IMG/VR virus record: IMGVR_UViG_3300022661_000051
DNA length: 64,000 bases
Direction: 5' to 3' (one strand)
Origin: a virus
Lineage: Duplodnaviria > Caudoviricetes
Numbering within the stretch: position 1 is the first letter of the stretch; the number at the start of each line of letters is the position of its first letter. The position numbers were made by a program, and so were the translations under genes. This document shows positions 2,507 to 55,634 of this stretch, piece by piece. The notes beneath the pieces are model-generated. The model searched no databases and was not told the DNA's origin. It saw nothing but the letters and a program-made list of their open reading frames with translations.

Positions 2507-2519
2507 TTATTATTAAGTT
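2507..2519 (-). promoter_or_regulatory. late-type promoter AACT-N6-TAA
   Basis: AACTTAATAATAA upstream of the beta' C-half; motif recurs about 16 times upstream of genes. Confidence 0.7.
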
Positions 2520-2545
2520 AATCCTATAAAACTTTGTTATAAATA

Positions 2546-2553
2546 TATATTAT
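2546..2553 (+). promoter_or_regulatory. early-type promoter TATATTAT
   Basis: Recurrent octamer resembling the phiKZ early promoter TATATTAC; followed by a CAGATGAA...TTCATCTG hairpin and an SD. Confidence 0.65.
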
Positions 2554-2611
2554 TTTTATGACAGATGAAGATAGCTAGTTCATCTGATTATATTTTAAAA
2601 GGAGGCTTTAC

Positions 2612-3121
2612 ATGAAAGTCAAAATTTCTGGCAACGGAGGAGAAGACAGTAGAGTTCAGTCTATTCAGTCCGAAGCCGCAGGACAAAAAAGATATGTAAT
2701 GATGAAAGGAACAGTACCAAATGAATTTAATGGGGATATTAAGTCGCCTCCCAAATTCAAACCTACTGAACCTGAAATTGTTAAAAGCAAGGTTCTTGTT
2801 ATTGATAAGCTTATCGTAACAATAACGGAAAAATTGAATGAGGAGTTCACATTTAAAATTGATACAAAATTCGCTCCAGTGAATGGTATCATTCCAGAAT
2901 TCGATATCTGTTCAAAAGAAGATATTGAATTCACTCCAGAAACTCGATTAAGCGATATCGAGTCGATTATCAGACGTTGCGGTATACTTGAAAAGTATAA
3001 TAAATACTTTACTCGAGATCCCGAAATTATTATCAATAGTTTTAAGATCAATATCGAACGAGAGTTGGGTTATTTTGCAGAGTTTAATGCTGCTATGATG
3101 ATCGCCCGAGATATATTCTAG
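2612..3121 (+). CDS. hypothetical protein
   Basis: 169 aa ORF with AAGGAGG SD. Confidence 0.75.
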   Translation: MKVKISGNGGEDSRVQSIQSEAAGQKRYVMMKGTVPNEFNGDIKSPPKFKPTEPEIVKSKVLVIDKLIVTITEKLNEEFTFKIDTKFAPVNGIIPEFDICSKEDIEFTPETRLSDIESIIRRCGILEKYNKYFTRDPEIIINSFKINIERELGYFAEFNAAMMIARDIF

Positions 3122-3168
3122 TAAGATATTACTTCGTCAAAAACTATCCAATACAATAAATTAGGGAG

Positions 3169-4779
3169 ATGAAAACAATGAAAACACAGTATATACCTGA
3201 AATCGATGATATCGAAGCGCGCCGTGTTAATATAACCGCGCACTATCCAGACTCTCCGGATTATGAATATGAAGTTCGTTTGGAGAGATTAAATCTCGAC
3301 GAGGAAAGAATGAAGGATATTAATAGTAATAATGGCTTCATCATTACTACTCGTCAAAACATTAAAAAGGATCTTAAAAGTGACGATTCAATCTTCTCAT
3401 CTAGATTTGGTCAGACTCTTCAAGATCTTAATCCGTTCGCATTCAGATATCACTGTAAATGTCAGAAATATCAGGGTCGTCTGAACAACGGAAAGATGTG
3501 TGAAGTATGTCACACTCCAGTAAAATACATCGGAGATAACTTTGAGTATTTTGGTTGGATATGTATTAAGGACCCTTATGTCCTCATCCATCCGAACTTA
3601 TTCAAATCTCTTGAATGTCTTATCGGTCCTAAGGAATTAAACAATATTATCATGTGCGACGATAAGGTCGACGAAAATGGTAATATCATTCCAAAGGAAC
3701 CTTCTAAAGATTCTCCATTTGTTGGTATCGGAATTATGGGACTCAAGGAAAGAATTATGGAAGTTCTTGATTTCTATAGAGCTAAGAAGCCAGCAAAGAA
3801 AGAATATTACGAAGATATTGTTGCTAATCTTGATAAGTTGTTTACACATTCAATTCCTGTATATACAACTCACTTAAGACCTTACAATATCGATGAGAAT
3901 AATTTCTCATTTGAAGGAAATAACGCTATCTATAACGTTCTTGCTGCTCAGGCAACCAAGATCAACAAAGATAAGTTATTTATAAATCATAAAGGAAAAC
4001 CTCAGAAAGAAATTCTTTATGCGATGCAGAAGAATTTCAATGAAATCTATGCTGATATGGAAACAGTAATGGCTGGAAAGAAAGGCTATGCCAGATCTCT
4101 TATCGGCGGTAGATTTAATTTCTGTTCAAGAGTAGTAATTGTTACAGGACCTGATCTTCACATCGATGAGATTGGGCTTCCATATGCTACTCTTATCGAG
4201 TTATTCCAGCAGAGGCTTGTTAATATCCTCAGAAAAACATATAGCCCAGCAGAGGCGTATATGATATGGAATAATGCGAGAAACAATTACAATCCGATCA
4301 TTGGCGATCTCATTGAATCTATTCTCGCTTCAGAATATGTAGGAGTTCTCTTTAACAGAAACCCTTCAATTCATTCTGAATCTATCAGACAGATGAGGGT
4401 TGTTCGTATGAACAAGGATTATACATGTACAGTACCTCTTCAGGTTCTTGCAGGTTTTAATGCAGACTTTGACGGCGATACTTTAAATGTAATGTATATC
4501 CTTGATCAGGAACTTCTTAACGCTGCAATGAAGGTATTCAATCCTAGATATGCTGGTCAGATATCTAGAAACGATGGAATGTTCAATTCGAATGTTCATC
4601 ATCAGACAGACACAATGATCTGTTTAAATTCTTTCGCTCAGCTCGGAAGAGATTCATATTCAGATCAGGAATTCGATGCTATTAAGGCTATTCAGAAAGC
4701 TGATGATATTATCAATCTTGATGAGTTACCTTACAGAATCGATCCTGATTTAAAACGTATACTTTCTATGTGTGCATAA
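3169..4779 (+). CDS. phage RNA polymerase beta' N-terminal half, catalytic (probably non-virion RNAP)
   Basis: SIFSSRFG, Zn ribbon CKC..CEVC, GKKGYAR, FNRNPSIH, catalytic NADFDGD; lies in an early-motif operon. Confidence 0.93.
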   Translation: MKTMKTQYIPEIDDIEARRVNITAHYPDSPDYEYEVRLERLNLDEERMKDINSNNGFIITTRQNIKKDLKSDDSIFSSRFGQTLQDLNPFAFRYHCKCQKYQGRLNNGKMCEVCHTPVKYIGDNFEYFGWICIKDPYVLIHPNLFKSLECLIGPKELNNIIMCDDKVDENGNIIPKEPSKDSPFVGIGIMGLKERIMEVLDFYRAKKPAKKEYYEDIVANLDKLFTHSIPVYTTHLRPYNIDENNFSFEGNNAIYNVLAAQATKINKDKLFINHKGKPQKEILYAMQKNFNEIYADMETVMAGKKGYARSLIGGRFNFCSRVVIVTGPDLHIDEIGLPYATLIELFQQRLVNILRKTYSPAEAYMIWNNARNNYNPIIGDLIESILASEYVGVLFNRNPSIHSESIRQMRVVRMNKDYTCTVPLQVLAGFNADFDGDTLNVMYILDQELLNAAMKVFNPRYAGQISRNDGMFNSNVHHQTDTMICLNSFAQLGRDSYSDQEFDAIKAIQKADDIINLDELPYRIDPDLKRILSMCA

Positions 4780-4789
4780 GAAACAAAAG

Positions 4790-4954: not shown

Positions 4955-5989
4955 CTAACTTGCAAAAGTGTTATAAATGTTCTGAGCCTGTGGAGATCTC
5001 AATCCTAACTGATAGCTATAAGAAGAACCTGGACGTTCATACCACTTAAGGAACATACCAGTTGCATCTACTACAGATAATGAATTGAGATATTCAAAGC
5101 TGCCTACATTATTTCGGATCTGGTTATATGTATAGTCGAGAACTCCTGCTCCACTATGACCAAACCCGCCGGGATCGCTAGTGTTAACTGCACAATGCAT
5201 GTCTATTCCCTGAAGACCTGCATTAATATATTCAAGCTGACCAATTAAAGAATCAGGTGAATATCCATGAGCTAAACACCAATTATATAAAGCGGCATGG
5301 CCGTATCGATTTGTCCACTGACAAATACCATAACCCTGACCGCTTGAAACTGTAACTAGAGAACCAAGACGACCACCGCCACACATATTTGGGTGGAAAG
5401 TATTGTCTTCTATAGCAATGTTTCCCATAATTCCTGCAGTAAGGCTTGCAGAATAGCCTTTATTAATAAAATAATTCCAAATGGCCTGTTTTCTACCCTC
5501 TACAGTGCTTGTATCTCCAAGATCAGCATCACTTGAATATGTAATGTTAGCAGGTGGAGCTACAGGAGCATTCGTAGGAGCTTCTGTTGCAGGCTCTGTC
5601 GGAACTTCGATAGGTTCAGTAATTTTTTCTGTTTCTGTACAAAATACTGCTGTTGTAGTTGTAGGAGCTACAGTAGTGGTTACTACAGTAGGCTTAACAG
5701 TAGTATCTGACTCGATTGTACTTGTTGTGTTTGTAATAGTATTTGTTGTTAAGGTTGTTGTTGTTTCCTCTGTAGTAGTCGTGCTACTAGCAGTTGTAGA
5801 AACAAAAGTATAAATTGTTGTAGTGCCCTTATTAGGATTTTCCGAATAAGATAATAACTTTGTTGTCTGTACTCTGGGCTTAGTATTATTAGCCACAATA
5901 GTTATACCCAGAATTAGACAGATACTGAAGATTAAGATAAACACACGGCTTACCTTTCTTACGTTTAAATTTTTGAACTTCATATTCAT
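4955..5989 (-). CDS. membrane-anchored cell-wall hydrolase, phage tail lysozyme (Phage_lysozyme2)-like domain
   Basis: N-terminal TM helix, Thr/Pro-rich linker, then IWNYF..KGYS...AGIMGNIAIE, GYGICQWT, QLEYI, YERPG. Confidence 0.8.
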   Translation of the reverse strand: MNMKFKNLNVRKVSRVFILIFSICLILGITIVANNTKPRVQTTKLLSYSENPNKGTTTIYTFVSTTASSTTTTEETTTTLTTNTITNTTSTIESDTTVKPTVVTTTVAPTTTTAVFCTETEKITEPIEVPTEPATEAPTNAPVAPPANITYSSDADLGDTSTVEGRKQAIWNYFINKGYSASLTAGIMGNIAIEDNTFHPNMCGGGRLGSLVTVSSGQGYGICQWTNRYGHAALYNWCLAHGYSPDSLIGQLEYINAGLQGIDMHCAVNTSDPGGFGHSGAGVLDYTYNQIRNNVGSFEYLNSLSVVDATGMFLKWYERPGSSYSYQLGLRSPQAQNIYNTFAS

Positions 5990-6050
5990 GTTATAGATTT
6001 CCTCCTTATTATTTCTTTTGGGAACTTTACAGATTGACTATAACATTTAT

Positions 6051-6058
6051 ATAATATA
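6051..6058 (-). promoter_or_regulatory. early-type promoter TATATTAT
   Basis: ATAATATA on + strand, upstream of the lysozyme-like gene. Confidence 0.55.
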
Positions 6059-6174: not shown

Positions 6175-7002
6175 TTATTCGTTTTCTTCATCATCCTCAA
6201 GAGAATCAATTTTAGCACTATAACTCTGATAATCAGAATACTCGAGGATTGGAGCTAATCGTGTTGTCTCTTCGACAAGCTTATCTTTAAGTATCTCGAG
6301 ATCGACCGCAGCTTGAAGTTTCACAAATTCTGCAACAAGGATTCCAAGAACATTATTATCCTGGTCATACACAGCGACACCAACACCGGATACAATTCCA
6401 GTATCTTTGCACATATTATAGATAACGGGATAAGTGTTCTTATAATCTTCAATGTTATGAATGACAAGACTACCCTGACGGTAGACATCCTTGATGCTGT
6501 CGTCAAGGAACTGTAACGGAATACCAACATGATCCATTCCCTTTCTGATAATTCCACAGTTCTTTCTGATATGCTCGCTTACACAAGTAGTCTTAATAAA
6601 TGGAAGACCGTGACTTGTTTGAACACCATTATGGATAGCATAAACCGATAATCTGTCGGGCTTTGTCTCGTCAGATATCTTTTTAATGACATCTTTGGTG
6701 CTATCATCGACCTTAACGAATATCTTCATAAGGTCCTTTTCTTTCTTGTCATTGCATTTTTTGACTTCTTTTTCTGTAGCTAGAAGCTTATTGATGATTA
6801 ACTCATTCTGCTTGGCTTGATTCTTCTGTCCGCTATATATCATTTTAAAGAATAGGACAAACATCGCAACAACTATGGCTAAGAATACTGCTATTGTAAC
6901 AATAGCAACACCATAATCATTCAATAATTCCGCAAAATGATCTATTTCATCAACATTATTATTTGCTGCTTCTGTAGTAGTTGCTAATATTGTATTAGAC
7001 AA
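6175..7002 (-). CDS. putative holin (single TM plus GAF-like domain, T4 gpT-like architecture)
   Basis: TM helix near residues 30-55, coiled segment, then a GAF-like domain (SVYAIHNG...CVSE...GVAVYD...GILVAEF); late-type motif at 7027-7039; adjacent to the lysozyme-like gene. Confidence 0.55.
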   Translation of the reverse strand: MSNTILATTTEAANNNVDEIDHFAELLNDYGVAIVTIAVFLAIVVAMFVLFFKMIYSGQKNQAKQNELIINKLLATEKEVKKCNDKKEKDLMKIFVKVDDSTKDVIKKISDETKPDRLSVYAIHNGVQTSHGLPFIKTTCVSEHIRKNCGIIRKGMDHVGIPLQFLDDSIKDVYRQGSLVIHNIEDYKNTYPVIYNMCKDTGIVSGVGVAVYDQDNNVLGILVAEFVKLQAAVDLEILKDKLVEETTRLAPILEYSDYQSYSAKIDSLEDDEENE

Positions 7003-7042
7003 AAATAAACACCACCTTTCATTTATTTAATATATTGTTACT

Positions 7043-11460: not shown

Positions 11461-11540
11461 AATATTACCTCCTTATATCTATATTGATTAATATAAAGTT
11501 CAGCTACTCAATTATTTATCATATAATAAACATATAAGTA

Positions 11541-11678
11541 AAGAAATTACCTGACAAGAAATTTCTTTGGCGTTATTGGGCGGGCGCAATAGTGTCCGAA
11601 GCAGTGTCGTCACCTCCAAAAAAATAAATACAACGCAAAAAAGAAAGGGCAGTGCGTAAGCACTGCTCTCTCTTTTGC
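11541..11678 (+). ncRNA. candidate small structured RNA
   Basis: Late-type motif AACA-TATAAG-TAA at 11529-11541, two hairpins, an exposed CACCTCC, then terminator GGGCAGTGC-gtaa-GCACTGCTC-TCTCTTTT; no SD-led ORF. Confidence 0.5.
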
Positions 11679-11683
11679 CTTTA

Positions 11684-12454: not shown

Positions 12455-12481
12455 AATTTAAATCTCCTTTATATAAATTAA

Positions 12482-13126: not shown

Positions 13127-13138
13127 AAGTGACCTCCT

Positions 13139-21284: not shown

Positions 21285-21311
21285 ATAAGATGCACCTCCT
21301 TTTCCATCACT

Positions 21312-21319
21312 ATAATATA
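21312..21319 (-). promoter_or_regulatory. early-type promoter TATATTAT
   Basis: Heads the 11.7-21.3 kb minus-strand gene run. Confidence 0.65.
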
Positions 21320-21852: not shown

Positions 21853-23325
21853 TTAAGGTAAAATTTTATAGATATGTTGACATATACTATTTAGATGGGT
21901 TTTGTTTATTTCATAAATACTTTCAAAGCCTTTTGTTCTTTGCCCTGATATCGTATTTATAGCAAAATATTTATGATCCTTGAAAGATTGTACAATAGCA
22001 AGATTTTCAGTACCTTCAAGTAATGATTTCTTAAACTCGTACTTCTCTGGATCAAGAACAGGGAATAATATAGGTTTCTGTTTTATACATTCCAATTGGA
22101 ATTGTAATGTAGCCATATCGGTTTCATGTTGAACATATATCTTTTCAATGTCAATCTCTTCAAGTATTGAACTGAGTTTCAGTTGATCATCTGATAATAT
22201 TTCATCGAACTCGGTTAATAGAGTTGCAAAGTAATCTTCAGGAACTTCTTCTTCGTTTTTATACTTTGAATATACTTCTTTAAGTATAGAGCAAGAATCT
22301 CCGAGATATTTATATGAAGTCATAACAGTATTCTCGTCAAAGATATCTTCAGCTTTTTCTCTTTTAATCTTACCCTCATCCGATACAGTAAGAATATATT
22401 CTGAAGTTATATCATTTGACAGCGCATACTTTGACTTCTTTCGAGTATTTCTTTCATTTGACATATAATTAATGACATATGTATGCATAGGAGTATCAAC
22501 GCCGACGGGCATTCCACCAATAGCTCCAACAGCCATATGTTCATGAATACGAGATATAGTCTTAGGATCTTCGTCTCCCATATACGCTTCTTTCAGTTCA
22601 GCAAATATAGTAAGAAGTTGCACGAATTCATTATTAGTAAGACGTATATAGTTATATACACCTTGATCAGTAATGAACTTCTCTTTCTGTTCCTGTTTAG
22701 CTCTATATTCCGGCATTTCTCTGTTGTTCTTATTATCTCCACCATCTTTAATATCGAATACGAGATTATATGGGAGATAAATAGCATCAGTTATCCAAGT
22801 TCTTTTAACACCATTGATTTCATATTCAATCTTTGGTCCTGGAGTTAAAAGATCTTCCGAATCTATATTCAGAACAGTATCGCAAAATTCTAAGAACTTT
22901 CGTTCATAAGATCCTACATATGTTTTATAAGTTCCATCAGACCATCTATACTTACCAGAGATTCCTCTATTGGCAAGCATCTTATTTTCTTGCCATTCAG
23001 GATCATCCAATAGTGTAGTTTTACCATGAACTCTAAGCATATTCTTTTCATATTGCTGTCTAGCTTCTGCTTTACAGGCATTGGAGCAATATGCTTCATA
23101 TCTTACATTCTTTTCATCCCAGTTTGTATGCTTCTTACAGATTCGACATAATCCGAATCCTGCTCCAACTGGTTCTTTCTTATTACATAAATCAAACACG
23201 ATTCTATTAGCAGTATAGCCTTTATCATTATTCAGCATATCAGAATGGTGTTTATCTATATGAGAACTTAACTTGTTCCGTTCTGCCATTTTACCACAGT
23301 ACGGACAACGATATTTTCGAGCCAT
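21853..23325 (-). CDS. zinc-finger plus PD-(D/E)xK nuclease (TnsA / T4 gp4 head-completion-like)
   Basis: C2H2 CPYC..HIDKHH, second CRIC..YCSNAC, then GSYERKFLEFCD..KIEY..WITD..FDIKDG; late-type motif at 23354-23366. Confidence 0.6.
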   Translation of the reverse strand: MARKYRCPYCGKMAERNKLSSHIDKHHSDMLNNDKGYTANRIVFDLCNKKEPVGAGFGLCRICKKHTNWDEKNVRYEAYCSNACKAEARQQYEKNMLRVHGKTTLLDDPEWQENKMLANRGISGKYRWSDGTYKTYVGSYERKFLEFCDTVLNIDSEDLLTPGPKIEYEINGVKRTWITDAIYLPYNLVFDIKDGGDNKNNREMPEYRAKQEQKEKFITDQGVYNYIRLTNNEFVQLLTIFAELKEAYMGDEDPKTISRIHEHMAVGAIGGMPVGVDTPMHTYVINYMSNERNTRKKSKYALSNDITSEYILTVSDEGKIKREKAEDIFDENTVMTSYKYLGDSCSILKEVYSKYKNEEEVPEDYFATLLTEFDEILSDDQLKLSSILEEIDIEKIYVQHETDMATLQFQLECIKQKPILFPVLDPEKYEFKKSLLEGTENLAIVQSFKDHKYFAINTISGQRTKGFESIYEINKTHLNSICQHIYKILP

Positions 23326-23443
23326 GAGATTTCTCCTTTCTCGAGTAATTTAATTATTTAAATGTTCTTGGGTTAAAATATTGAGCGTTTGATAAAGTCA
23401 AGAGTTTAAGTTGTATATTATAATAGTGTAAAGGAGGTATATT

Positions 23444-23658: not shown

Positions 23659-23737
23659 AACATCTATGTAATAGAGGAGCAGGGGATGGAGGGAGCATAT
23701 AATTAATTACAATAATCAGGAGCGGAGGAAAGAGGGA
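23659..23737 (+). promoter_or_regulatory. late-type promoter plus two period-8 GGA leader elements
   Basis: AACA-TCTATG-TAA, then GGA at 23676/23684/23692 and 23719/23727/23735. Confidence 0.55.
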
Positions 23738-23739
23738 CA

Positions 23740-23844: not shown

Positions 23845-23939
23845 TATTTAGAAACAGGGATTATCCCTGTTTCTTTTTTGTTCCTTCAGATAGAGGAACT
23901 TTATAATAAATCAATCCCTATATAAGGAGGTCAGAATAT

Positions 23940-25136
23940 ATGGGTGGTAAATTTATCAATAAATCTTATGTCAATGCTATAGATACTTTAACCAAAGGTA
24001 CTATTGACAGAGTACAAAATGCCAATTATATTTATAATAATCACAAACCAGTAGTATCTACTTGGTTTAATATGAATAAAGAAGGAACAACTTTCGATGA
24101 AGCTACCAGAGCTGAATATGTTCAGCTTGGTAAATTAAGCCCAATTAAATTCAATCAGATATCCGATGCAGTATTCTATTCTTCAGGTATTAAGATTGAA
24201 CTTGATGTAGATTATAATGAAGAAGGTTTAGGAGTAAATAACCTTCCAAATATCGGAGGAATTGTTCTTCCTAATACATGGATACCATATGCAGGAGATT
24301 ACTTTATTATCAATCATATGCAAAAAGATTGGTTATATAAAGTCACTGCAGTATCTTTTGATACTATCGATAATGGTAACAACATCTACAAGTTCGAAGC
24401 TTCTCTTGATCAAATGGATTCTTCTCAATTACGTTCTCAAGTTGTTTCTAAATACAGGATGGTAATAAACAATGTTGGAACGTCATATAATGCTGTAATT
24501 ACTGAAGAGGTTTATAACAGTGTCGAAACTATAGATACTATATTAGACTCTCTGAAGGATTACTATATAGCATTATTTTACAATGAACGAGTTCAGACAT
24601 TTACATATCAAGGATATTATGGAAAACTCTATGATCCTTACATGATTGAATTCATTATGCGTAATAATCTTCTGGAAGGATCTTCTCAATACATTTATGC
24701 ACAACATGAAGTTCCGGTCCCTAAAACATTTTGTATAGATTATAATCAGACCTATTTCCGTGCACTTGAGAACAAGTCTTTAGATTTGTTTAACAATAAT
24801 TTCTGTTCTGCATCTCTAATAGACAATCAATATAGCCTTTTCTCTTGTGTAATGGATGATTACTTTATGATATCATACTCTGGTCTTGGAATTCAAAAAT
24901 TCCAAACTCTTGATAGTGAATTAGTATCAAGAGTTAAGGAGAATAAAGAATACACAGATGGAGAACCTGAATCTTATTACAATATCATTATCAGATATTT
25001 CAATTCTGAGAATATTGGAAACGATATAATCTCTTATCTGGAAAATATAAAGTTCGAACCAACAAGTAAACTTTTCTATGCTATTCCAATGATAATATAT
25101 ATCCTTGAGAAAAACGTTGAAAATCTAATGTCGTAA
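23940..25136 (+). CDS. putative virion neck/head-completion protein
   Basis: IPYAGDYFII..LYKVTAV motif reminiscent of T4 gp14-type neck proteins; late-type motif at 23897-23909. Confidence 0.45.
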   Translation: MGGKFINKSYVNAIDTLTKGTIDRVQNANYIYNNHKPVVSTWFNMNKEGTTFDEATRAEYVQLGKLSPIKFNQISDAVFYSSGIKIELDVDYNEEGLGVNNLPNIGGIVLPNTWIPYAGDYFIINHMQKDWLYKVTAVSFDTIDNGNNIYKFEASLDQMDSSQLRSQVVSKYRMVINNVGTSYNAVITEEVYNSVETIDTILDSLKDYYIALFYNERVQTFTYQGYYGKLYDPYMIEFIMRNNLLEGSSQYIYAQHEVPVPKTFCIDYNQTYFRALENKSLDLFNNNFCSASLIDNQYSLFSCVMDDYFMISYSGLGIQKFQTLDSELVSRVKENKEYTDGEPESYYNIIIRYFNSENIGNDIISYLENIKFEPTSKLFYAIPMIIYILEKNVENLMS

Positions 25137-25173
25137 CATACTAATAATTTAATCTCTATAAAGGAGGGTTAAT

Positions 25174-26848: not shown

Positions 26849-28666
26849 TCAAAATACCGGATCTACCAATTTAACCGACGGATCTGGCTGGTTAGTTATT
26901 TCATATATTGCAAGGAGACACTCCTTTGAAACAGTTCTTGGCGATTTACCATCCATACCAATCATCTGAATCTTTGAAGTTGCAACTTTTCGACATTCAG
27001 CATTCGCTTCAACCGTATATACTGGTTTGATAATAGCGGTATCTCCATCGTAGTCAAGGCTCATTACTTCAATGAGACCATTTGAAATACTAAGAGTATC
27101 ATCAAATAATGGAGATGTATTAGAACCGATATCTTCTTTTTTAATACTTGGATACCAGCGATAAAGTTTACCGTTAATAACAACAGGTTCTGTTTTAACA
27201 GTAGATTTAATATTTACTTGACTTGGGAACTGGTTAAGATATGAATCTATAGGGAATCTAGTAATAAGAACCATCTTATCTTCAGTCATTTCACAAGCAG
27301 CCATATAGAACAGATCACACCATGTAAGAGGTCTTTCAAACCCAGGAGTATCCTCTATATTCACTTTATTTTCTAGATAATCCCTTGGATCTACTCTATG
27401 ACCTATAAGCTGAAGATACAAATTGTCGAGATTAACATTTAGCTTCTTTTCTTTTAATATTTTAACACAAGCTGCTCTATCCAGAGGAATAGAGATAGGA
27501 ACGAAACGATTAGAATAACCATGGATAAATCTCTCAATTTCTTTATCTATCTCTATATCAGAGAATTTGATCTGATAATCTTCAAGAGGAAGATTAATAA
27601 CCTCGCCAGATTTGAGTTTAACAGGATACTCCATAACTCCAGCAAATTGATTTTCGAAGAATCGTCTTAACCAGAAAACGATAAATGGCTTAAAGTTACA
27701 TAATGCTGCAGCTAATGGAAGAGCAGCATGATCCATATCAACCATCATATCATCGATATCTTCAACTTTAAGCTGAGGAGCAGACATTACAAGACGTACT
27801 GAATAGTCTATAGTCTTATACATAATACCCTTCTTAATAAGACCAGTTTTACCAGGAAGGTTACCAGAAGTTTTATTACCTCCAATAGTCGTACCAGTTC
27901 CAAACCAATCATATATTTGAGTAAGTGTTGTTTGTATACGTCCCTTAGTAGAGTCTGCTAACGACAATCCATAATCGGCATTTTCTTTAACCGCTTTAGA
28001 AGCGATAATAAGCTGGGAATATAATTTGTTTATTTCTCCAACGCCTATACTTGCCTGTTTAGTATCAACGTCTCTATACGCTGCAGGAATTACGATATAT
28101 TTATTAATCCACATCTTATCTTTATTAGCTTCAATGAATTTGATCTTGGTGTTTCTAGCGGTCGATTCGGTCTTCTTCCATTTAATCTTATCAAAGTTCT
28201 TTTTAAACCAATCGATACCAGTATCACCATCATCATCCTGAACAATTTCTCCATTACTATTGATAATGAATGCATCAGTACCATGAATAATCTCTCCGAC
28301 TTTAGAATTAAGACGAAGAAGTGTTTTATAACATAATGGATTAATATACCATCCACCAAGATCTATATAACCGAATATACCCTGTCGTTCGGCTTTTGTT
28401 ATACCAAATATTTCGTTAGATAAAAGACCTTCTGGTGATGGAGTAGGACCGTTGAAAAATACCGGATCTGTTATGGGCTTAAGATCGTTCGCTTTAACGA
28501 ATCGATCTACATCGATAATTTCAATACGAAATTTTTTATTACTGGAATCAACACCGGCTTCATTCATTATTACATTACCGTCGTCATCGACAGTAGAGCT
28601 TTCGAATATAGCATCGACATCTGTATTTCCGAGATATACCATATCTCTCATTAATGAACTTAACAT
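26849..28666 (-). CDS. second phage RNA polymerase beta' N-terminal half, catalytic (probably virion RNAP)
   Basis: EGLLSNEIFG, FGYIDL, VIPAAYRD, GKTGLIK, ITRFPI, catalytic SLDYDGD; lacks the Zn ribbon; late-like motif at 28696-28708. Confidence 0.92.
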   Translation of the reverse strand: MLSSLMRDMVYLGNTDVDAIFESSTVDDDGNVIMNEAGVDSSNKKFRIEIIDVDRFVKANDLKPITDPVFFNGPTPSPEGLLSNEIFGITKAERQGIFGYIDLGGWYINPLCYKTLLRLNSKVGEIIHGTDAFIINSNGEIVQDDDGDTGIDWFKKNFDKIKWKKTESTARNTKIKFIEANKDKMWINKYIVIPAAYRDVDTKQASIGVGEINKLYSQLIIASKAVKENADYGLSLADSTKGRIQTTLTQIYDWFGTGTTIGGNKTSGNLPGKTGLIKKGIMYKTIDYSVRLVMSAPQLKVEDIDDMMVDMDHAALPLAAALCNFKPFIVFWLRRFFENQFAGVMEYPVKLKSGEVINLPLEDYQIKFSDIEIDKEIERFIHGYSNRFVPISIPLDRAACVKILKEKKLNVNLDNLYLQLIGHRVDPRDYLENKVNIEDTPGFERPLTWCDLFYMAACEMTEDKMVLITRFPIDSYLNQFPSQVNIKSTVKTEPVVINGKLYRWYPSIKKEDIGSNTSPLFDDTLSISNGLIEVMSLDYDGDTAIIKPVYTVEANAECRKVATSKIQMIGMDGKSPRTVSKECLLAIYEITNQPDPSVKLVDPVF

Positions 28667-28756
28667 GAGGGTTCCTCCTATTCAATAAAATTCTATTATT
28701 ATAATGTGCAAAGTTTTTTAAAAAAATAGGAGAGGGAATATCCCTCTCCCATATTT

Positions 28757-31398: not shown

Positions 31399-31503
31399 AT
31401 ATTCTCACACTCCTTTATATAGATTACATTACTAAGTAGTTTAGTATATTAAAAAATACTTAAAAAAATAAAGGGTACTTTAAAGTACCCTTTATTATAA
31501 TTA

Positions 31504-34973: not shown

Positions 34974-36536
34974 TTATATGATAGACAAGAACATTAAGAA
35001 CTCGTCAATGATGAAATCCGACATCGGTCTGATAGGCATCCCGTTTATAGAAGCATCGTCATAGTCTATAGCCTCAAAATCAGATGATAAGATAATGGCT
35101 ATAACACTATGTATATGCTTCTCATTCTTTTCAGAAGGATACTTACTTCTGACCGCTTCATAATACTGACTATTCTCGATTTTATTCATTTCTTTTTTAT
35201 TGATCGAGTTTCTAGTCACGTATTTCATAAGTCTTCCGGAAATGATATATGGTAAGACTATCATTCCCTGTTTTAATAATTGCCGTTTTGCGGCAATCAT
35301 TAAAATAATATAATCTCGCGAAGTTATATTTTTCATCGTGATTGGATCACCAAATTCTTTGGCGAATAAACACGTTATCAATTGAAGCTGGAATTGAGTT
35401 ATGATTGGTTTTCCATGTTTCGATAACTCTTCAGCATAGAAATTAATCTCTTTTTCAGAGAATGGACCATATCTGTCAATGATATCTTCCAATATAATTC
35501 TACAAGAAGTTTCATTTTGCAGATACAGGGCTTCGTTTGTCTTTATCATTGTAGCTTCGTATTTATCAAATTGTGAAGTGTTATCTTCACCATCTCGTTT
35601 TGAAGCTGATAATGATACGAAATCATATTCGTATTCGATTGCGGTTACTGAATAACCAAGCATCTTTCTCGTAGCTGCGAGGTTATACATAATGATATTT
35701 TCGTTATACTTATACTTAGGCATAACCTGTATAATGATAGTATCAATAATACTGTGAATACTAGTCATAGGATCTATTCCGCGTATCGCAGACATTGACC
35801 ACAATTGACTGTTTTTCTTCACATCGTTAGCTACAGTTGTAGAAACGGTTTCATATAACTTAAGATATATATTTACACCTGGAACGAGATCGAAGAGATA
35901 TCTATATATCTCAAGAAGAAACGACTCTACGTTCGAGGTGTATCTGTTTACGTGTAGAAAATGCATGATTAATGGTATCATCATATTCTGAAATACACTA
36001 ACCATCATAAAGAACTTAGCATGCTCATCATTATATTGAAGAGCTTCGTTCACTTTGTTCTTATATTTAAGCTCAAGATGATATTCTTCATCAGTCATCG
36101 TCTTGACTTTGTTTATCATACTTTCAGACAAGATATGTTTTCGTATGTCGTAGATAAACATGTCTTTAGAATAAGGGTATACATTTCCTTGTTTATCCCT
36201 CATACCAAAGTCAATCATATACTTCATTCGATAATAGATCAACAGAAGTTCATTATCTATATCGAAATACTTTTCGAAGAAGTTAAGGTACTGACATATA
36301 TGCATCTTAACTTCTGGTGAATTGTAACATCTTTTGGATGATACTAATATGAAGCTGTCGAAGGCTCTCGTTTCGTCCTCTGACATGTTTAAATTATAGT
36401 ATTTTGCTACCGGTAATTGTATAGCGGTTTTTGTCATCTGGAATATATCATCTTTTTGGTTTATCGGCAACCAATCATCTATATTCGCATATTTCTTGTT
36501 TGTATCCGGTTCAAAATGATTAAATAAATTAACCAT
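34974..36536 (-). CDS. candidate non-virion RNAP promoter-specificity (sigma-like) subunit, phiKZ gp68 / AR9 gp226 type
   Basis: About 520 aa, helical; start moved to the ATG after AAGGAGG. YNDEHAKFFMMVSVFQNMMIPLI recalls that family; first gene after the early motif at 36572-36579. Confidence 0.45.
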   Translation of the reverse strand: MVNLFNHFEPDTNKKYANIDDWLPINQKDDIFQMTKTAIQLPVAKYYNLNMSEDETRAFDSFILVSSKRCYNSPEVKMHICQYLNFFEKYFDIDNELLLIYYRMKYMIDFGMRDKQGNVYPYSKDMFIYDIRKHILSESMINKVKTMTDEEYHLELKYKNKVNEALQYNDEHAKFFMMVSVFQNMMIPLIMHFLHVNRYTSNVESFLLEIYRYLFDLVPGVNIYLKLYETVSTTVANDVKKNSQLWSMSAIRGIDPMTSIHSIIDTIIIQVMPKYKYNENIIMYNLAATRKMLGYSVTAIEYEYDFVSLSASKRDGEDNTSQFDKYEATMIKTNEALYLQNETSCRIILEDIIDRYGPFSEKEINFYAEELSKHGKPIITQFQLQLITCLFAKEFGDPITMKNITSRDYIILMIAAKRQLLKQGMIVLPYIISGRLMKYVTRNSINKKEMNKIENSQYYEAVRSKYPSEKNEKHIHSVIAIILSSDFEAIDYDDASINGMPIRPMSDFIIDEFLMFLSII

Positions 36537-36584
36537 GGGTATTTTGACCTCCTTTGTCATTAGTCGCTACTATAATATATAAAC

Positions 36585-37376: not shown

Positions 37377-37474
37377 ATAATATTGCCACCTCCAACGGTA
37401 ATATTTATAATTAAGTTCTTGAGGGTGTGAAATTCAAAAAAATAAAACGGATGTAGAGTCCGTTTATTTTTTGA

Positions 37475-39462: not shown

Positions 39463-39510
39463 TTAAGATTCCTCCTTATATTTGTTTATTAATAGGTTAT
39501 TTCGTTATTT

Positions 39511-41035: not shown

Positions 41036-41144
41036 TTTAGTTTCCTCCTATAAAATAAATATTTCAATAGACAACTAGTCTATCATATGTATAATATACA
41101 ATCCAATAACCATTTAATGGATTTATTCAATTGTTGCCAGAGCT

Positions 41145-41933: not shown

Positions 41934-42013
41934 ACCTCCGATAATTTAATAACAAGCGTTTGTATCGAACTTTTTAATAAAATCTAAAATCTCTAGAAAG
42001 GAGAATTATTGAT

Positions 42014-46186: not shown

Positions 46187-46265
46187 AGTAACACCTCCTT
46201 TGAATTATATTTGTGCCATTGTTACACTAAAATAATATACAATTAACAAATTTTTTAACGAAAAA

Positions 46266-47118: not shown

Positions 47119-47520
47119 TTATCTGAACTGCTCGATTTTTCTTACATCTTCGAATACAGTATTATCGTAACAAGTTACAGATCTGATGTCAGAAATATTT
47201 ATTGTTACGACCTTAGAATGTTCTGTTTCAGAGCAGTCAAGTTTTAATGTATCAACTACCCAGAAGTCCTGAACGTTTCCGTCGATATCAAAGTTTACAA
47301 AAGATCTAGCATCGGGCTTGTTCGCCATAGTAAATCCTGTAATTTTACAATCGTAAGTAAGCAATCCCTTAGACTGATCGAATACTACAATTTTATATGA
47401 TTTCGAAGAGTCTATTGGTATGATAGACTCTTCTACTCCGTTTTCTCCCTGGTTCTTTACGACAAGACGCATAGCAAAATACGCCTCGCCGTTACATTCT
47501 AAGAATGTTGTTGCTGACAT
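47119..47520 (-). CDS. hypothetical protein, Sm-like fold candidate (paralog of 55635 and 56248)
   Basis: KITGF..LKLDCSETEHSKVVTINISDIRSV; late-type motif at 47548-47560. Confidence 0.55.
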   Translation of the reverse strand: MSATTFLECNGEAYFAMRLVVKNQGENGVEESIIPIDSSKSYKIVVFDQSKGLLTYDCKITGFTMANKPDARSFVNFDIDGNVQDFWVVDTLKLDCSETEHSKVVTINISDIRSVTCYDNTVFEDVRKIEQFR

Positions 47521-47568
47521 AGTATAACCACCTTTCTAATTAATAAATTATAAGATAGTTAACCCACG

Positions 47569-50029: not shown

Positions 50030-50142
50030 AAATAAATCCTCCTAACATTATAAAATTATTTATTAGTTACCGTTCAGGTAGAATTTGACAAAAAATGAAT
50101 GGGGTATATAATACCCCATTCTATTTTGTTGATTATGATAAT

Positions 50143-53100
50143 TTACGCTTTATGCTTCACTCGATCTTTTTCTTCAGCTTTCTTAGCAGAATTCCATCTG
50201 GTAAGCGTTCCTACAAGATAACCAGTGATACGTCTGATACGTTCAAATTTGGAATCTTCTGTTTCTTTACGCTTACAGTTAGGACATTCGTCATTAATAA
50301 CACCAGTGTAACCGCAAACAGGATCTCTATCTACAGGATGGTTGATAGATCCATAGCCGATACCTGCATCGTGCATGCAACGAATAATCTTTTCAAATAC
50401 ATCAATATTCTTTGTTGTATCTCCATCGAGTTCTACATATGTAATATGTCCACCATTAGTAAGCTCATGGAATGGAGCTTCGAGACGGATCTTATCATAT
50501 GCACTGATAGGATAATATACAGGAATATGATTACTGTTAGTGAAATACTCTCTATCAGTAACACCTTCAATAACTCCGAATTTATCTCTTGTCTTCCTCA
50601 GAGCACGCCCTGCGTACGATTCGGCAGGAGTGCCTATGACAGCGAAGTTTAACTTTGTTTCTTCTGCAGCTTTATCTGTATATTCTCTCATATACTTGAT
50701 AATATTATAACCCTTCTTCCAATACTCTTCACCTTCACCGTGATGATGTCCATAAAGCGCAACAAGAGCTTCAGCGAGTCCAACAAATCCGATAGCTAAT
50801 GAACCGTGCTTAATAACTTCACGAACTTCATCGTCCCACTTAAGCTTCTCAGAATCAAGCCATATACCCTGACCCATAAGGAATGGGAAGTTATAGACTT
50901 TACGTTTAGCCTGAATTTCAAATCTTTCAAGAAGCTGTGATTTTACTACATCAAGAGCCTTATGAAGATTCTGATAGAACTTCTTTTCATCGCCTTCAGA
51001 CTCAAGAGCAATCATAGGAAGGTTGATTGAAGTGAATGAAAGGTTTCCTCTTGAATGGCTCTGTTCTCTACTAGGATCATGTACATTACCCATAACACGT
51101 GATCTACAGTTATGAGAAATAATTCCTGAAACATCAAATCTGTCTGATTCTGTTTCGACATCGTAACTATCCTCATTAACATAAACAGGTTCGATAGACA
51201 TGACTGTACATGTGGTATCAATTATAGGATGGCTTGGACGTGTAACGCCATTATTCCTTTTAATTTTCTTATTAGATGTCATAAAACTATACAGAATTTC
51301 TGAAGTTTCAAATTCTATTCTATATCTGTATTTATCGTGATATGAAGAATAATGACTAACGTACATTTTACAAGGATATCCTAAAGACTGAACCAAAGCC
51401 ATCTGTTGAAGAGCGAGTTCTTTATTTGTAGAACCGAGCATTATTCTTGTAGATCTACAAGCGCCTTCAGAACAGTATCCATCTGCATCTATCATACCAG
51501 CAAGGAATGAATATTTTGCAGCTGTATCCCAAGAAAATACTTCATTAGGAATATGTCTTTCAGATTTTTTATTTCCTCCGAATATTGAGAAAAGATATGA
51601 CTTGAATGATTTTAATTTTTCTCCAAGATTAATCCTAACCTGATAATAGTTTTCATTTGTCTTTTCTCTCATGTCTGTTAATGCTACATTGCCACCGAGC
51701 TTAGTTTCTACAACATACTTCACTTTCTCGATAATATCCATCTCGTCGATACCAAGACTAATTGTAATTGTTCCACTATAGTTAGAATCACATAATAAAA
51801 CTCCTAATAACCAAGAAATATCCTGATCATACATTATTGTATTTTCAGAATATTGATTATAAGTAACAGGAACTTTGTCTCCTATCTTCATATCCGAAAC
51901 AAAGGTTCTATTAAACTGTCCGAATTCATCCATTACAGGAAGTGGGTGATCAAGAGTACAAAGTAAACTTCTTCCGTTATTAAATTTAACCCTAACCCAA
52001 TTATTCTTATTGGGGTTCTTAATAAGTTTCTTACAATCAACAAATCTTCCGGATGAAGTATCATAGATCTGAACAATTCCGGATGTTATAATATACTGAG
52101 ATTCTCCAAATAAACGAATTACGTTGCATCTTATCATTCTTTCCCAAAATCTCTTAAATGATTCTACGAAAAGATGACCATTAAATTTATAAGTTATAAT
52201 TTCGTCTCCCTGAACACATCCCATGTAGGTCACTTCAGACTCTGGAACTCCTTCTTTATAATACTGCTTATTGAAAGGAGCATCAAGGAAAGCGAAGTTA
52301 GGGAAAAGTCTCTTAGCAGAAACTCTACATGCGAGTTTAAAGAGATCGTAGTTTGGATCTTCTGGATAGTAATTAACTCCTTCTTTTACCTTAAAGATAG
52401 CAATAGGGAATATTGCTGTTTCTCCATGTCCAAGACCAGCTTCAATAGCCAAAAGGAGATTTTCTATAACCATACGGCCAGCAGTCGAAATATCAGTTCC
52501 GAAGTTGATTGAACTGAAAGGCACCTGTGCGCCTGCTCTTGAATGCATACTGTTAAGATTATGCACAAATCCTTCCATGGCCTGATATGTCTGTTTATTT
52601 ACTTCTTTATATGCCATTGTTACGATTTTATCAGTAACATTTTTTTCTTCTCCATGATGAAGAATTGCTTGATTTAATATATTATCAAGGTCTTTATCTG
52701 TATAAGTATCATCATAAAAAGCAGAAAGTTCATTCTTTTCAGTTTCGGAAATTTCAAGACCGAGAGTTTTGATTCGATCTATATTTTCTTTAAGAGATCT
52801 ACGGAATGACTTAAGAACTCCTGGAGCCATAGAATAATCAAAATTAGGAATACTTTGACCACCATGACAGTCATTCTGGTCTGATTGTATAGCGATAGCT
52901 GCAAGTGCTGCGTATGTAGAGATCGGATTAGGTTCTCTGATATATCCATGTCCAGTATCGAATCCGTTTTTGAATAATTTTAAACAGTCTATCTGACAGC
53001 ATGTTACAGTAAGCTTATAAAAGTCGAGATCGTGAATATGAATTCTACCACATCTATGATTATCTGCAGCTGTTTTATTTATATCATTTTCGAGATAGTA

Positions 53101-53565
53101 TGCCTTAGACACATTACTTCCAATCTGAAGCATTGTGCCCATAGCACCATCTCCGTTAACATTACCATTGTCTCTTTTGAGATCGCTTTCAGAAGAGTCT
53201 TTTCCAAGAAGTTCTGATATAGCAGATGAAATAGAATCTCTGGAGTTTCTGATCTCATTTCTTTTCTGTCTGTAAAGAATATATTCTTTAGCGGTATCTG
53301 CAAAGCCAGCTTTGATAAGTTCTCTTTCTACGAAGTCCTGTATTTTTTCTACGCCGATACCAGTTGTTTCAGGAAGGGGGTCAATCCAATTCTGACAATC
53401 CTTATATACTTCATATACAAGATCGATAAGAATATTGTTGTCGATCTGATCATATGTCATGTTTTCATGAGATGCTATAATAGCTTTCTTAATAGCATTC
53501 TCAATTCTCGAGGGGTCAAAAGGAACAACTGTTCCATTACGTTTGATTACATTAAAATCTGGCAT
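50143..53565 (-). CDS. nrdD: class III anaerobic ribonucleotide reductase with ATP cone and intein
   Basis: VIKRNG ATP cone, IHIHDLDF, GGQS, YMG|CR, TPAES, CPVCG/CPNC, glycyl-radical RRITGYL. Confidence 0.97.
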   Translation of the reverse strand: MPDFNVIKRNGTVVPFDPSRIENAIKKAIIASHENMTYDQIDNNILIDLVYEVYKDCQNWIDPLPETTGIGVEKIQDFVERELIKAGFADTAKEYILYRQKRNEIRNSRDSISSAISELLGKDSSESDLKRDNGNVNGDGAMGTMLQIGSNVSKAYYLENDINKTAADNHRCGRIHIHDLDFYKLTVTCCQIDCLKLFKNGFDTGHGYIREPNPISTYAALAAIAIQSDQNDCHGGQSIPNFDYSMAPGVLKSFRRSLKENIDRIKTLGLEISETEKNELSAFYDDTYTDKDLDNILNQAILHHGEEKNVTDKIVTMAYKEVNKQTYQAMEGFVHNLNSMHSRAGAQVPFSSINFGTDISTAGRMVIENLLLAIEAGLGHGETAIFPIAIFKVKEGVNYYPEDPNYDLFKLACRVSAKRLFPNFAFLDAPFNKQYYKEGVPESEVTYMGCVQGDEIITYKFNGHLFVESFKRFWERMIRCNVIRLFGESQYIITSGIVQIYDTSSGRFVDCKKLIKNPNKNNWVRVKFNNGRSLLCTLDHPLPVMDEFGQFNRTFVSDMKIGDKVPVTYNQYSENTIMYDQDISWLLGVLLCDSNYSGTITISLGIDEMDIIEKVKYVVETKLGGNVALTDMREKTNENYYQVRINLGEKLKSFKSYLFSIFGGNKKSERHIPNEVFSWDTAAKYSFLAGMIDADGYCSEGACRSTRIMLGSTNKELALQQMALVQSLGYPCKMYVSHYSSYHDKYRYRIEFETSEILYSFMTSNKKIKRNNGVTRPSHPIIDTTCTVMSIEPVYVNEDSYDVETESDRFDVSGIISHNCRSRVMGNVHDPSREQSHSRGNLSFTSINLPMIALESEGDEKKFYQNLHKALDVVKSQLLERFEIQAKRKVYNFPFLMGQGIWLDSEKLKWDDEVREVIKHGSLAIGFVGLAEALVALYGHHHGEGEEYWKKGYNIIKYMREYTDKAAEETKLNFAVIGTPAESYAGRALRKTRDKFGVIEGVTDREYFTNSNHIPVYYPISAYDKIRLEAPFHELTNGGHITYVELDGDTTKNIDVFEKIIRCMHDAGIGYGSINHPVDRDPVCGYTGVINDECPNCKRKETEDSKFERIRRITGYLVGTLTRWNSAKKAEEKDRVKHKA
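51109..52218 (-). mobile_element. intein with LAGLIDADG endonuclease (370 aa) in NrdD
   Basis: Starts CVQGDE, block B TLDHPL, FLAGMIDADG, ends YDVET..SGIISHN followed by +1 Cys (CRSR). Confidence 0.95.
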
Positions 53566-53701
53566 ATTAATTACCTTCCTTTATATAAAATTTTATAAAA
53601 AAGTTATAGGGTAAGTAAAACATAAAAATGCTTAATCTTACCCATAGAGGGCAAATGGTGAAGAATACCCTGAAGATCCAAATGAATCTTCAGGGATTAT
53701 T

Positions 53702-54469
53702 TTATACACAATACATAATAGGTTGATTTTTGTTGGCTGGGTTGACATGGGACTCATCAAGTAATCTGATAATCTCTTCTCTTTTATCAGCCCAACGAAC
53801 TATTGCGTCATATTTATAGTTTACCGTGGCATATACTGTTTCGAGATCATCGAACTGTTCAAGCCAAGGTAATATAAAATTAGCAACATCCGATGTTGCT
53901 AAATCTTCAAATGTCAGCATTTGTGTTGGAGGTATAGTAGAAAGGTTTATTGGATGAGGGACAAAAACGTCCAGAGGAATTTGTTCAAGACCTCCGGTTA
54001 TATCATCACTCGTAGCACTTTGGAGTTTTATCTTATTCGGTGGTTCAAATTCAACGAATATAGAGTTGTTGAATACTGATGTCATATTAGCTCTTGCTTG
54101 AAGAAGCATAACATCATCCATAGAATAATTATTGTATGCAGATAAATAGTCATACATACCAACACCTGACTGTTGTGATAAACCACACTGGCCATACACA
54201 TCCCAGGCTATGTCTTTAACTCCAAGTATTTCTGCACCTCCAAGAAGGTCAGTATCTATCAGATAATAACCATTCTTTTTGTTTTCTTTCTTGACATCTA
54301 TCATAATCCTCACCTGATGAGGAAAAAATCTTGAAAAATCTGGAATAGTATCATCTCGTATAGGTTCTATCCATTTATCTTTGGTACAATCTTTAGGAAG
54401 TGGCAATGTAGCCGTTCTTAATCGTCTTTCAATTTTCTGGATAAGTTTGTTCATTGCATTTAATGCCAT
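53702..54469 (-). CDS. putative virion neck/adaptor protein
   Basis: KIERRL..TIPDFSRFFP..HPINLSTIPPT..F..LA; late-type motif at 54567-54579. Confidence 0.45.
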   Translation of the reverse strand: MALNAMNKLIQKIERRLRTATLPLPKDCTKDKWIEPIRDDTIPDFSRFFPHQVRIMIDVKKENKKNGYYLIDTDLLGGAEILGVKDIAWDVYGQCGLSQQSGVGMYDYLSAYNNYSMDDVMLLQARANMTSVFNNSIFVEFEPPNKIKLQSATSDDITGGLEQIPLDVFVPHPINLSTIPPTQMLTFEDLATSDVANFILPWLEQFDDLETVYATVNYKYDAIVRWADKREEIIRLLDESHVNPANKNQPIMYCV

Positions 54470-54514
54470 TTTCTATTTCCTCCTTTCCAAGGTTTTAGAA
54501 TTAATTATTAAGGC

Positions 54515-54579
54515 TCCCATATCCTCGGCTCCTTATAATTAGTTCCCTCTTTCCTTTGCTCCTCTATTATAGAGATGTT
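54515..54579 (-). promoter_or_regulatory. late-type promoter plus two period-8 GGA leader elements
   Basis: AACA-TCTCTA-TAA-TAGAGGAGCAAAGGAAAGAGGGA...AGGAGCCGAGGATATGGGA; homologous to 23659-23737. Confidence 0.55.
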
Positions 54580-54629
54580 TGTTAAAATATCAAAAAATAA
54601 ACGGGGATCGAAATCCCTGTTTATTAAAA

Positions 54630-55475
54630 TTAAAACATAGTTTCTCTTATCAGGAGATTGATCCTTGCAACCTCCTGCTCTTGATAAGATACACTATTTA
54701 TGAATTGCTGTTCAGCAATTCTATCAATAGTATTGAGGATTTTGCTGTCAACAGGATATCTTATCCCAGTTTTATTATAATATTTATAATATTCAGGATA
54801 AGATATTCCCTCATCTGAATCAAATATTTTAATTCTATCCAGGAGGGTTTTATCCTTTTTATATCCTGTACTTTTTAGTAAGGATACTATTTCTGTTGCC
54901 ATTTGGCGGCAGAAATCTTCAGATTCATCTCTGAATTTGAAGAATAAAAACTGCACCAAACCATAATGGTCAGAATATTTAATGTCCCATATGTTCGATA
55001 CATATGTAAGATAATCATTTAATATGTATCGACTTTTGGGGAGGTCAATATTTACATCCATATTTGATAATGTCCTTACCGCCATTATATAATCATACGG
55101 ACTGTCCTCATCAGATATCGGTATTAGTGCAGGACACCTTTTACGGATGAGGATATATACTATATTTGCCAAGTCCCAATATAGGCTTGACAATATTTCA
55201 TCCTCATTCATGTCAGGATTGTTTTCAATATTATCGCCGTATTTGGTTTCGAAATAACAGAATATACGCAACACATTCTGTATTTCTAAAACTATCTCAT
55301 CTTTTCTAACATAGTGTCTCTTCCAGTTAGCGTTATAGTTTATAATATCCGCCAACCTTTCAATATTATCATATTGTATATTTTCAAAATTCTTTCTAAT
55401 CATTCTATCCAGAATTTTGAAAACGTCTACTTTTTGTGTTTCGATGATAAAATCATCTATTTTTCTTTTTGCCAT
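54630..55475 (-). CDS. hypothetical protein
   Basis: 281 aa, SD, early motif at 55538-55545. Confidence 0.7.
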   Translation of the reverse strand: MAKRKIDDFIIETQKVDVFKILDRMIRKNFENIQYDNIERLADIINYNANWKRHYVRKDEIVLEIQNVLRIFCYFETKYGDNIENNPDMNEDEILSSLYWDLANIVYILIRKRCPALIPISDEDSPYDYIMAVRTLSNMDVNIDLPKSRYILNDYLTYVSNIWDIKYSDHYGLVQFLFFKFRDESEDFCRQMATEIVSLLKSTGYKKDKTLLDRIKIFDSDEGISYPEYYKYYNKTGIRYPVDSKILNTIDRIAEQQFINSVSYQEQEVARINLLIRETMF

Positions 55476-55634
55476 TGTTTATTCTCCTTTGTTATAAATT
55501 TTTTGACAACACTAGCATGCCGTCGATACTTACCTATATAATATATATACATAAATTTTTTTACCATGCCAAAATATCCATACTAACCTAGCTTTATACC
55601 AAAGAACATTTATATAATACAATATAGATGAAAG

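Follow-up and report, generated by a model that had tools for sequence, protein, structure and literature searches.

We know of no multisubunit RNA polymerase (RNAP) system other than that of Bacillus phage AR9 that reads a -10-like promoter element on the template strand and needs deoxyuridine (dU) there. The uracil is thought to keep the polymerase of such nucleus-less phages off host DNA. AR9 late promoters have the form AACA-N6-TA/G, the last base being the start site, early promoters have the form AAATATATATTAT-N6-G(+1), and leaders are at least 26 nucleotides (nt) long (PMC5312081, PMC7598289). The -10 uracil pocket of the AR9 non-virion RNAP comprises V206 and I207 of the sigma-like subunit gp226 together with R363 and K375 of the beta N-terminal subunit; the C-beta of V206 excludes the C5 methyl group, a V206G mutant accepts T and U equally, and V206 was reported to be absolutely conserved among close homologues (PMC9209446). 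Here, we analyzed a 64,000-nt stretch of the Caudoviricetes record IMGVR_UViG_3300022661_000051 (hereafter, the window, meaning this stretch at its full length), in which an earlier sequence-only reading had described a two-class promoter code with a late motif, AACW-N6-TAA (W, A or T), and an early motif, TATATTAT. The code is present, and it is very probably real and of the AR9 type, the late motif being an AR9 late promoter in which -8 may be A or T and +2 is fixed as A.

The window has ~34.5% guanine plus cytosine (GC), a coding density of 92%, and an intergenic share of 7.5%. Split RNAP subunits were assigned by PHROG and Pfam at 1256-2476(-), 3169-4779(+), and 26849-28666(-), as were GroEL, a large terminase, and an intein-bearing NrdD. 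By tblastn the RNAP subunits were closest to those of AR9/PBS1, Staphylococcus S6-like phages, Listeria LPJP1, and Yersinia phiR1-37 (28-32% identity), and unlike this AR9 group the phiKZ-like phages were more distant. Identical copies of window proteins occurred on ~21 metagenomic contigs, the longest of 230,803 bp, and a complete IMG/VR relative, G001 (229,448 bp, 40.8% GC), was collinear with the window, with 63% identity between the two virion RNAP beta-prime subunits. Megablast of 24 kb and tblastn of a protein of 1161 amino acids (aa) against phage records gave no match. From sequence, the source is in all likelihood an uncultured jumbo phage of ~230 kb in the AR9/PBS1-S6-phiR1-37 branch with two multisubunit RNAPs, one that uses the AR9 scheme. 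The DNA of this phage available to us amounted to 82.5 kb, comprising the window and an 18.5-kb flank before the start of the window.

All 16 AACW-N6-TAA sites of the sequence-only reading were recovered at their listed coordinates, on the same strands. Between genes the motif was enriched, with 21 copies against 3.9 ± 1.9 expected from 300 dinucleotide-preserving shuffles of the intergenic DNA alone, none of which reached 21. On the sense strand 14 copies formed a peak, at 30, 37, 39, 39, 39, 40, 40, 40, 41, 41, 43, 43, 43, and 46 nt upstream of a start codon, while antisense copies were scattered without a positional peak. This 30-46 nt class took in 13 of the 16 listed sites, its fourteenth member, 21866(-), having been overlooked, and both listed variants (28696 and 39486) agreed with the positional window. 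When AAC-N7-T alone was fixed, the resulting window sites carried A at +1 in 17 of 18 cases, A or T at -8, and a nearly G-free spacer. Hairpin-plus-T-run terminators lay immediately upstream of several late sites, and the 18.5-kb flank held four further sites at 30-47 nt. Overall, the late motif preceded 16 of 58 genes in the window (28%), 44 of 182 in G001 (24%), and 73 of 261 in AR9 (28%), with antisense controls of 3, 10, and 14 genes, respectively (~5%).

Several observations weigh against reading the motif as a promoter. Enrichment over shuffled background, one of the checks proposed with the sequence-only reading, held between genes only; window-wide, the 41 copies did not exceed the 39.8 ± 6.2 in shuffles. 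The late core is short, 20 of the 41 copies are inside genes, and three listed sites (23659, 54567, and 11529) fall outside the positional class. The lack of window-wide enrichment, and the TATAA-like strings that end many late sites, would be expected if the motifs were a by-product of AT-rich intergenic composition or were -10-like boxes for the host sigma-70 polymerase. This explanation is nevertheless close to negligible given the excess over the intergenic shuffles, the strand and distance specificity, and the persistence of the motifs in G001 at its higher GC content; moreover, the invariant AAC is foreign to a sigma-70 -10 box, and the alignment of sites has no conserved -35 element.

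The same arrangement recurred in related genomes. The intergenic DNA of G001 held 50 late motifs where 9.8 ± 3.2 were expected, peaking 35-44 nt upstream of start codons, and 18 copies of the early motif TATA(T/C)TAT-N6-G against 1.0 expected; in an unbiased count of all dyads of a 4-mer, a gap, and a 3-mer, AACA-N6-TAA was the top dyad in G001 (22 sense against 5 antisense). In AR9, scanned as a positive control, the motif likewise peaked on the sense strand only, 25-50 nt upstream of start codons. Promoter class was kept across orthologues in all three genomes (window, G001, and AR9) carrying the gene: late for virion RNAP beta, the virion protein g281, the baseplate wedge g232, terminase, and virion RNAP beta-prime, and early for the gp226 gene and the RNase H operon. 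The claim that the late motif mostly precedes structural genes was broadly borne out, by virion RNAP subunits, virion structural proteins, the baseplate-wedge orthologue, and the large terminase, but the motif also precedes NrdD and an endonuclease.

Relative to the late promoters of AR9/PBS1 (PMC5312081, PMC5449584, PMC9209446; PDB 7S01), the sites share the AAC core, the six-base spacer, T(-1)A(+1), and a sense-strand location ~25-50 nt before the start codons of orthologous virion genes. They differ at -8, which is A or T here with T commoner, and at +2, where A occurs in 15 of 18 window sites and 39 of 47 in G001 but in 26 of 65 in AR9. Additionally, -2 is a purine in G001, unlike AR9. Protein identity to AR9 is 21-43%. 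The late promoters of phiKZ, by comparison, consist of TATG at the start site alone, without an AACA element (PMC7598289).

The fixed distance to the start codon, and a further sequence block after the motif that two leaders have in common, would also suit a signal that acts in the RNA, for example a processing site or leader element, placed before ribosome-binding sites. We consider this very improbable, as in AR9 the motif lies at the same distance, marks starts determined by differential RNA sequencing and primer extension, and works in vitro (PMC5312081, PMC5449584), and as the window sites come after terminator hairpins and a specificity-subunit homologue is encoded in the window.

The early motif had been described as the phiKZ type, but it is that of AR9 itself, since AR9 early promoters are AAATATATATTAT-N6-G (PMC5312081). 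All eight listed TATATTAT sites were recovered, and the motif numbered 33 copies window-wide against 16.8 ± 4.3 expected, while TATA(T/C)TAT-N6-G had 8 intergenic copies against 0.7 ± 0.9. The G after the six-base spacer was present in 7 of the 11 TATATTAT copies between genes but in 2 of the 21 within coding sequence, and in 7 of the 8 listed sites. The placement of this motif before non-structural genes held broadly, as it precedes the genes for non-virion RNAP beta-prime and the gp226 homologue and the RNase H operon, of which the AR9 orthologues also have early promoters. The likeness to the AR9 early promoter, which is used by the virion RNAP, thus extends from the TATATTAT core and the G six bases downstream (with the site at 2546 an exact match) to the genes served, whereas the upstream AAA is often replaced here (e.g., by TTTA or TTG) and G001 additionally uses TATACTAT. 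The phiKZ early promoter (TATATTAC-like) resembles these sites in having an AT-rich element centred near -10 with the start 6 nt downstream, and phiKZ has the two-polymerase logic in common with this phage.

We identified a homologue of gp226 in the 528-aa open reading frame (ORF) 34974-36560(-), which had 23% identity to the AR9 protein (pairwise E 2e-14). A profile built from 18 clade homologues had 7S01_A (AR9 gp226) as its sole PDB match, at E 2.9e-26 and over positions 10-462 of 464. The gene order GroEL, g227 homologue, early promoter TATATTAT-N6-G, gp226 homologue is that of AR9, in which GroEL is g228 and an early promoter is annotated upstream of gp226; the g227 homologue was 32% identical to its AR9 counterpart (E 5e-31). 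The true start of the gp226 homologue is probably the second ATG, at 36536 (520 aa), since a Shine-Dalgarno sequence precedes this ATG and 520-aa forms dominate the protein cluster; the early motif would therefore lie 43 nt before the start codon, against 45 nt in AR9. The family comprised 212 homologues at E ≤ 0.001, the best 120 of which were 40-56% identical, with one at 99%, and some were on contigs of 170-263 kb. Among the split subunits of the non-virion RNAP, beta-prime N-terminal is encoded in the window and the others outside it; a beta N-terminal homologue in which R363 and K375 are conserved was found in G001. With the gp226 homologue and split RNAP subunits, the machinery that reads the late promoter in AR9 is encoded here.

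Following the AR9 scheme, the virion RNAP, with subunits encoded at 1256-2476 and 26849-28666, would be packaged in the particle and would start at TATATTAT-N6-G(+1) in the early phase, transcribing early genes that include those for non-virion RNAP beta-prime N-terminal (3169-4779) and the sigma-like subunit (34974-36560). In the late phase, the non-virion RNAP with the gp226-like subunit would start at AAC(A/T)-N6-TAA, by analogy reading the template strand at -11 to -8 with +1 as the first A of TAA, and the resulting leaders, bearing a Shine-Dalgarno sequence, would be ~20-35 nt long. A caution on this scheme is that the assignment of polymerases to motifs, and the start sites, are inferred from AR9 homology.

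The sequence-only reading had also proposed that this phage may have dU-substituted DNA, so that its late promoters, like those of AR9, would depend on uracils in the template strand opposite the AA. Such DNA was not supported by the nucleotide metabolism of the relatives. Specifically, G001 encodes ThyX (PF02511, 117 bits), with a weak Tmk-like match adjoining thyX, and Dcd (PF22769, 115 bits), both of which are absent in AR9, S6, phiR1-37, and LPJP1. These four cultured phages have a dCMP deaminase (PF00383), which was not found in G001, and tblastn with the AR9 enzyme had no match in G001, the window, or the flanks of the window. L022 also encodes ThyX, and related ThyX proteins occurred on many contigs of 210-236 kb. 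We consider dU-DNA unlikely here, since a thymidylate synthase would be superfluous in a phage whose DNA carries U in place of T.

What dU-DNA has in its favor is the common late consensus, the conservation of a gp226 homologue and of the beta-subunit pocket residues, and the placement of this phage in the same RNAP-encoding jumbo branch as the dU-DNA phages PBS1/PBS2, AR9, S6, and phiR1-37, the closest cultured relatives having, or being presumed to have, dU-DNA (PMC8150378, PMC9209446). Additionally, as had been anticipated for a uracil genome, neither ThyA (PF00303) nor dUTPase (PF00692) was found in G001; both are likewise lacking in AR9, S6, phiR1-37, and LPJP1, and dUTPase does not discriminate between the two groups. 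The search for a Ugi-type inhibitor did return a match, of AR9 Ugi to residues 239-280 of the ORF at 16469-17974(-) (39% over 44 residues; pairwise E 2e-5, tblastn E 0.006), which we judged spurious and rejected as an artefact of a 501-aa RHS-like protein rich in beta-strand repeats. On the other side, no credible Ugi was found in this search, which says little, because Ugi is missing from phiR1-37 too, and S6 has no known UNG inhibitor (PMC8150378).

The pocket itself has diverged. In alignments anchored on the invariant Trp208, position 206 was Val in all six cultured phages (AR9, BpSp, LPJP1, S6, SA1, and phiR1-37), but it was Gln252 in the window and Asp in G001, and 122 uncultured homologues had I (28), V (23), T (21), P (12), G (10), D (9), K (5), Q (3), and others at this position, thereby including the Gly that abolishes U selectivity in AR9 (PMC9209446). 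Tyr210, which stacks on -9G in AR9, was M, K, or I in the clade. Across the 2.1bis helix, N-x-x-L-W-x-M/K/I in the clade contrasts with D-x-V-I-W-x-Y/F in AR9, with loss of both the U-selective Val and the -9G-stacking Tyr/Phe.

The template bases at -11/-10 are probably thymines rather than uracils, because the clade makes deoxythymidine monophosphate (dTMP) via Dcd and ThyX and the methyl-excluding AR9 residue is not conserved. Several points count against thymine. Neither thyX nor dcd was seen in the window or its 18.5-kb flank; searches for ThyX homologues with G001 ThyX and P0226 as queries, together with cluster look-ups, placed none on the 230,803-bp contig set of this strain, a scan of metagenome contigs for thyX had a best match of 65% identity, and a look-up of neighboring Dcd led to another species only. 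A monofunctional Dcd would make dUTP, which the clade enzyme could thereby supply to a uracil genome. Beta-branched residues (I, V, or T) occupy position 206 in 72 of the 122 uncultured homologues (59%) and might still exclude thymine. Finally, discrimination at -11 in AR9 lies in DNA backbone geometry, not in a side chain; it could persist here and, being set by geometry, cannot be judged from sequence.

For this large uncultured clade as a whole (jumbo phages of ~210-260 kb with >120 gp226 homologues, whose NrdD/NrdG point to anaerobic hosts), we lean slightly towards thymine DNA combined with retention of the AR9 template-strand late promoter and a gp226-type subunit. If this is true, the clade enzymes are natural thymine-reading AR9-type non-virion RNAPs, and dependence on uracil is peculiar to the cultured AR9/S6/phiR1-37 lineage, as a specialisation, and not inherent in the promoter system. 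The specificity that uracil confers in AR9 may here come from the fixed +2 A and the -2 purine. A sister clade that shares the promoter, has a diverged pocket, and carries a pathway to dTMP would offer natural variants at the residue engineered in AR9 V206G, and raises two questions, namely the origin of U/T discrimination and how specificity is kept without uracil. With the two motifs, transcription units and temporal classes in these uncultured genomes can also be annotated from sequence alone.

In a third phage that has ThyX and these promoter motifs, L022, thyX and dcd lie behind late-type sites: at 9240-15078, AACW-N6-TAA occurs 37-47 nt upstream of the thyX operon, of a 974-aa gene, and of dcd. 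In L022 the non-virion RNAP appears to transcribe the dTMP genes themselves. P0226/L022 was rejected as the species of the window phage itself, having zero words in common with this genome.

Table 1. Predicted promoters and RNAP-related genes in the window (distances are to the start codon of the gene named)
Feature	Coordinates	Strand	Remarks
Virion RNAP beta C-terminal subunit	1256..2476	-	AR9 g264 homologue, 32% identity
Late promoter AACTTAATAATAA	2507..2519	-	43 nt before virion RNAP beta C-terminal gene 1256-2476; AR9 g264 has AACA-N6-TA also at 43 nt
Possible second late-type site, uncertain	2530..2542	+	Overlaps early promoter of 2612-4779 operon; 82 nt before ATG; outside main class
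Early promoter AAATATATATTAT-TTTTAT-G	2546..2560	+	Exact AR9 early consensus; before 2612-3121 and non-virion RNAP beta-prime N-terminal gene
Non-virion RNAP beta-prime N-terminal subunit	3169..4779	+	AR9 g270 homologue
Early promoter TATATTAT-ATAAAT-G	6044..6058	-	Before 4955-5989 (lysozyme-like)
Late promoter	7027..7039	-	37 nt before 6175-7002; G001 orthologue 39 nt
Late promoter	11488..11500	-	40 nt before virion-protein gene 10525-11460, then 1161-aa gene; G001 39 nt, AR9 g281 37 nt
Early promoter	21305..21319	-	Before operon 21284 to 19094, last gene RNase H; AR9 RNase H g241 has annotated early promoter
Late promoter, not in earlier list	21866..21878	-	Within 3' end of upstream gene; 39 nt before 21369-21839; G001 40 nt
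Late promoter	23354..23366	-	41 nt before 21853-23325 (endonuclease family); AR9 g233 46 nt
Early promoter	23414..23428	+	Before 55-aa membrane peptide ORF 23444-23611(+)
Late-type site	23659..23671	+	81 nt before 34-aa hydrophobic + strand ORF 23740-23844
Late promoter	23897..23909	+	3' of hairpin and T-run; 43 nt before virion structural gene 23940-25136
Late promoter	25135..25147	+	39 nt before 25174-25590
Virion RNAP beta-prime subunit	26849..28666	-	Assigned by homology
Variant late site cACATTATAATAA (cACA-N6-TAA)	28696..28708	-	42 nt before virion RNAP beta-prime gene; late motifs in orthologues, G001 37 nt, AR9 33 nt
Late promoter	31429..31441	-	After terminator hairpin; 43 nt before baseplate-wedge orthologue 30997-31398
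gp226 homologue (AR9 sigma-like promoter-specificity subunit of non-virion RNAP)	34974..36560	-	Gln252 at AR9 Val206 position
Early promoter	36565..36579	-	Before gp226 homologue; kept in G001 and AR9
Late promoter	37405..37417	-	41 nt before AR9 g227 homologue 36585-37376
Variant late site AACCTATTAATAA (AACC-N6-TAA)	39486..39498	-	Before GroEL; G001 orthologue 38 nt
Early promoter	41084..41098	-	Before 40217-41035
Late promoter	41968..41980	+	46 nt before large terminase first piece; AR9 g121 38 nt
Early promoter	46225..46239	-	Before 45785-46186
Late promoter	47548..47560	-	40 nt before 47119-47520; G001 orthologue 37 nt
Late promoter	50056..50068	-	After terminator hairpin; 39 nt before 49157-50029
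Late promoter	53593..53605	-	40 nt before NrdD (50143-53565)
Late-type site	54567..54579	-	110 nt before 53702-54469 (AR9 g112 virion-protein homologue)
Early-type site TATATTAT-ATAGGT-A	55531..55545	-	A instead of G at expected start; before 54630-55475
Late promoter	55605..55617	+	Before + strand operon 55635 to at least 64000

The listed site at 11529(+) was rejected as a promoter; no plus-strand gene lies downstream, and it may be a chance occurrence. We also rejected the 78-aa ORF at 23398-23634(-) as a mis-call, as the plus strand carries small units in 23398-23940. The first of these consists of an early promoter, the 55-aa membrane peptide, and a terminator, and the second of a late-type site, the 34-aa hydrophobic ORF, and a terminator. 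The leaders that follow the late sites 23659 and 54567, at 23672-23690(+) and 54549-54566(-), share the block TAATAGAGGAGCA(R)(R)GGA (R, purine), which may be a conserved element of the 5' untranslated region. A paper profiling AR9 transcripts reportedly likewise gives leader motifs.

Among the other genes, the region 11684-19054 holds eight minus-strand genes without G001 homologues, including the 501-aa RHS-repeat-like protein and an NrdG-type radical-SAM activase (17974-18588(-)), and resembles an insertion, particular to this strain or species, that interrupts the conserved gene order. The NrdD gene, 50143-53565(-), contains an intein with a LAGLIDADG endonuclease domain, and the presence of NrdD with NrdG suggests an anaerobic host. 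Finally, the large terminase, 42014-44805(+), is in two ORFs of 204 and 583 aa, both of which match a single 800-aa ORF of G001. They are separated by a 425-nt gap (42629-43053), for which we found neither an Rfam match nor an unusual fold. The AR9 terminase is annotated as a join of five pieces, making an intron in this gene a plausible candidate. A GIY-YIG/NUMOD1 homing endonuclease gene, 41145-41933(-), adjoins the terminase here.

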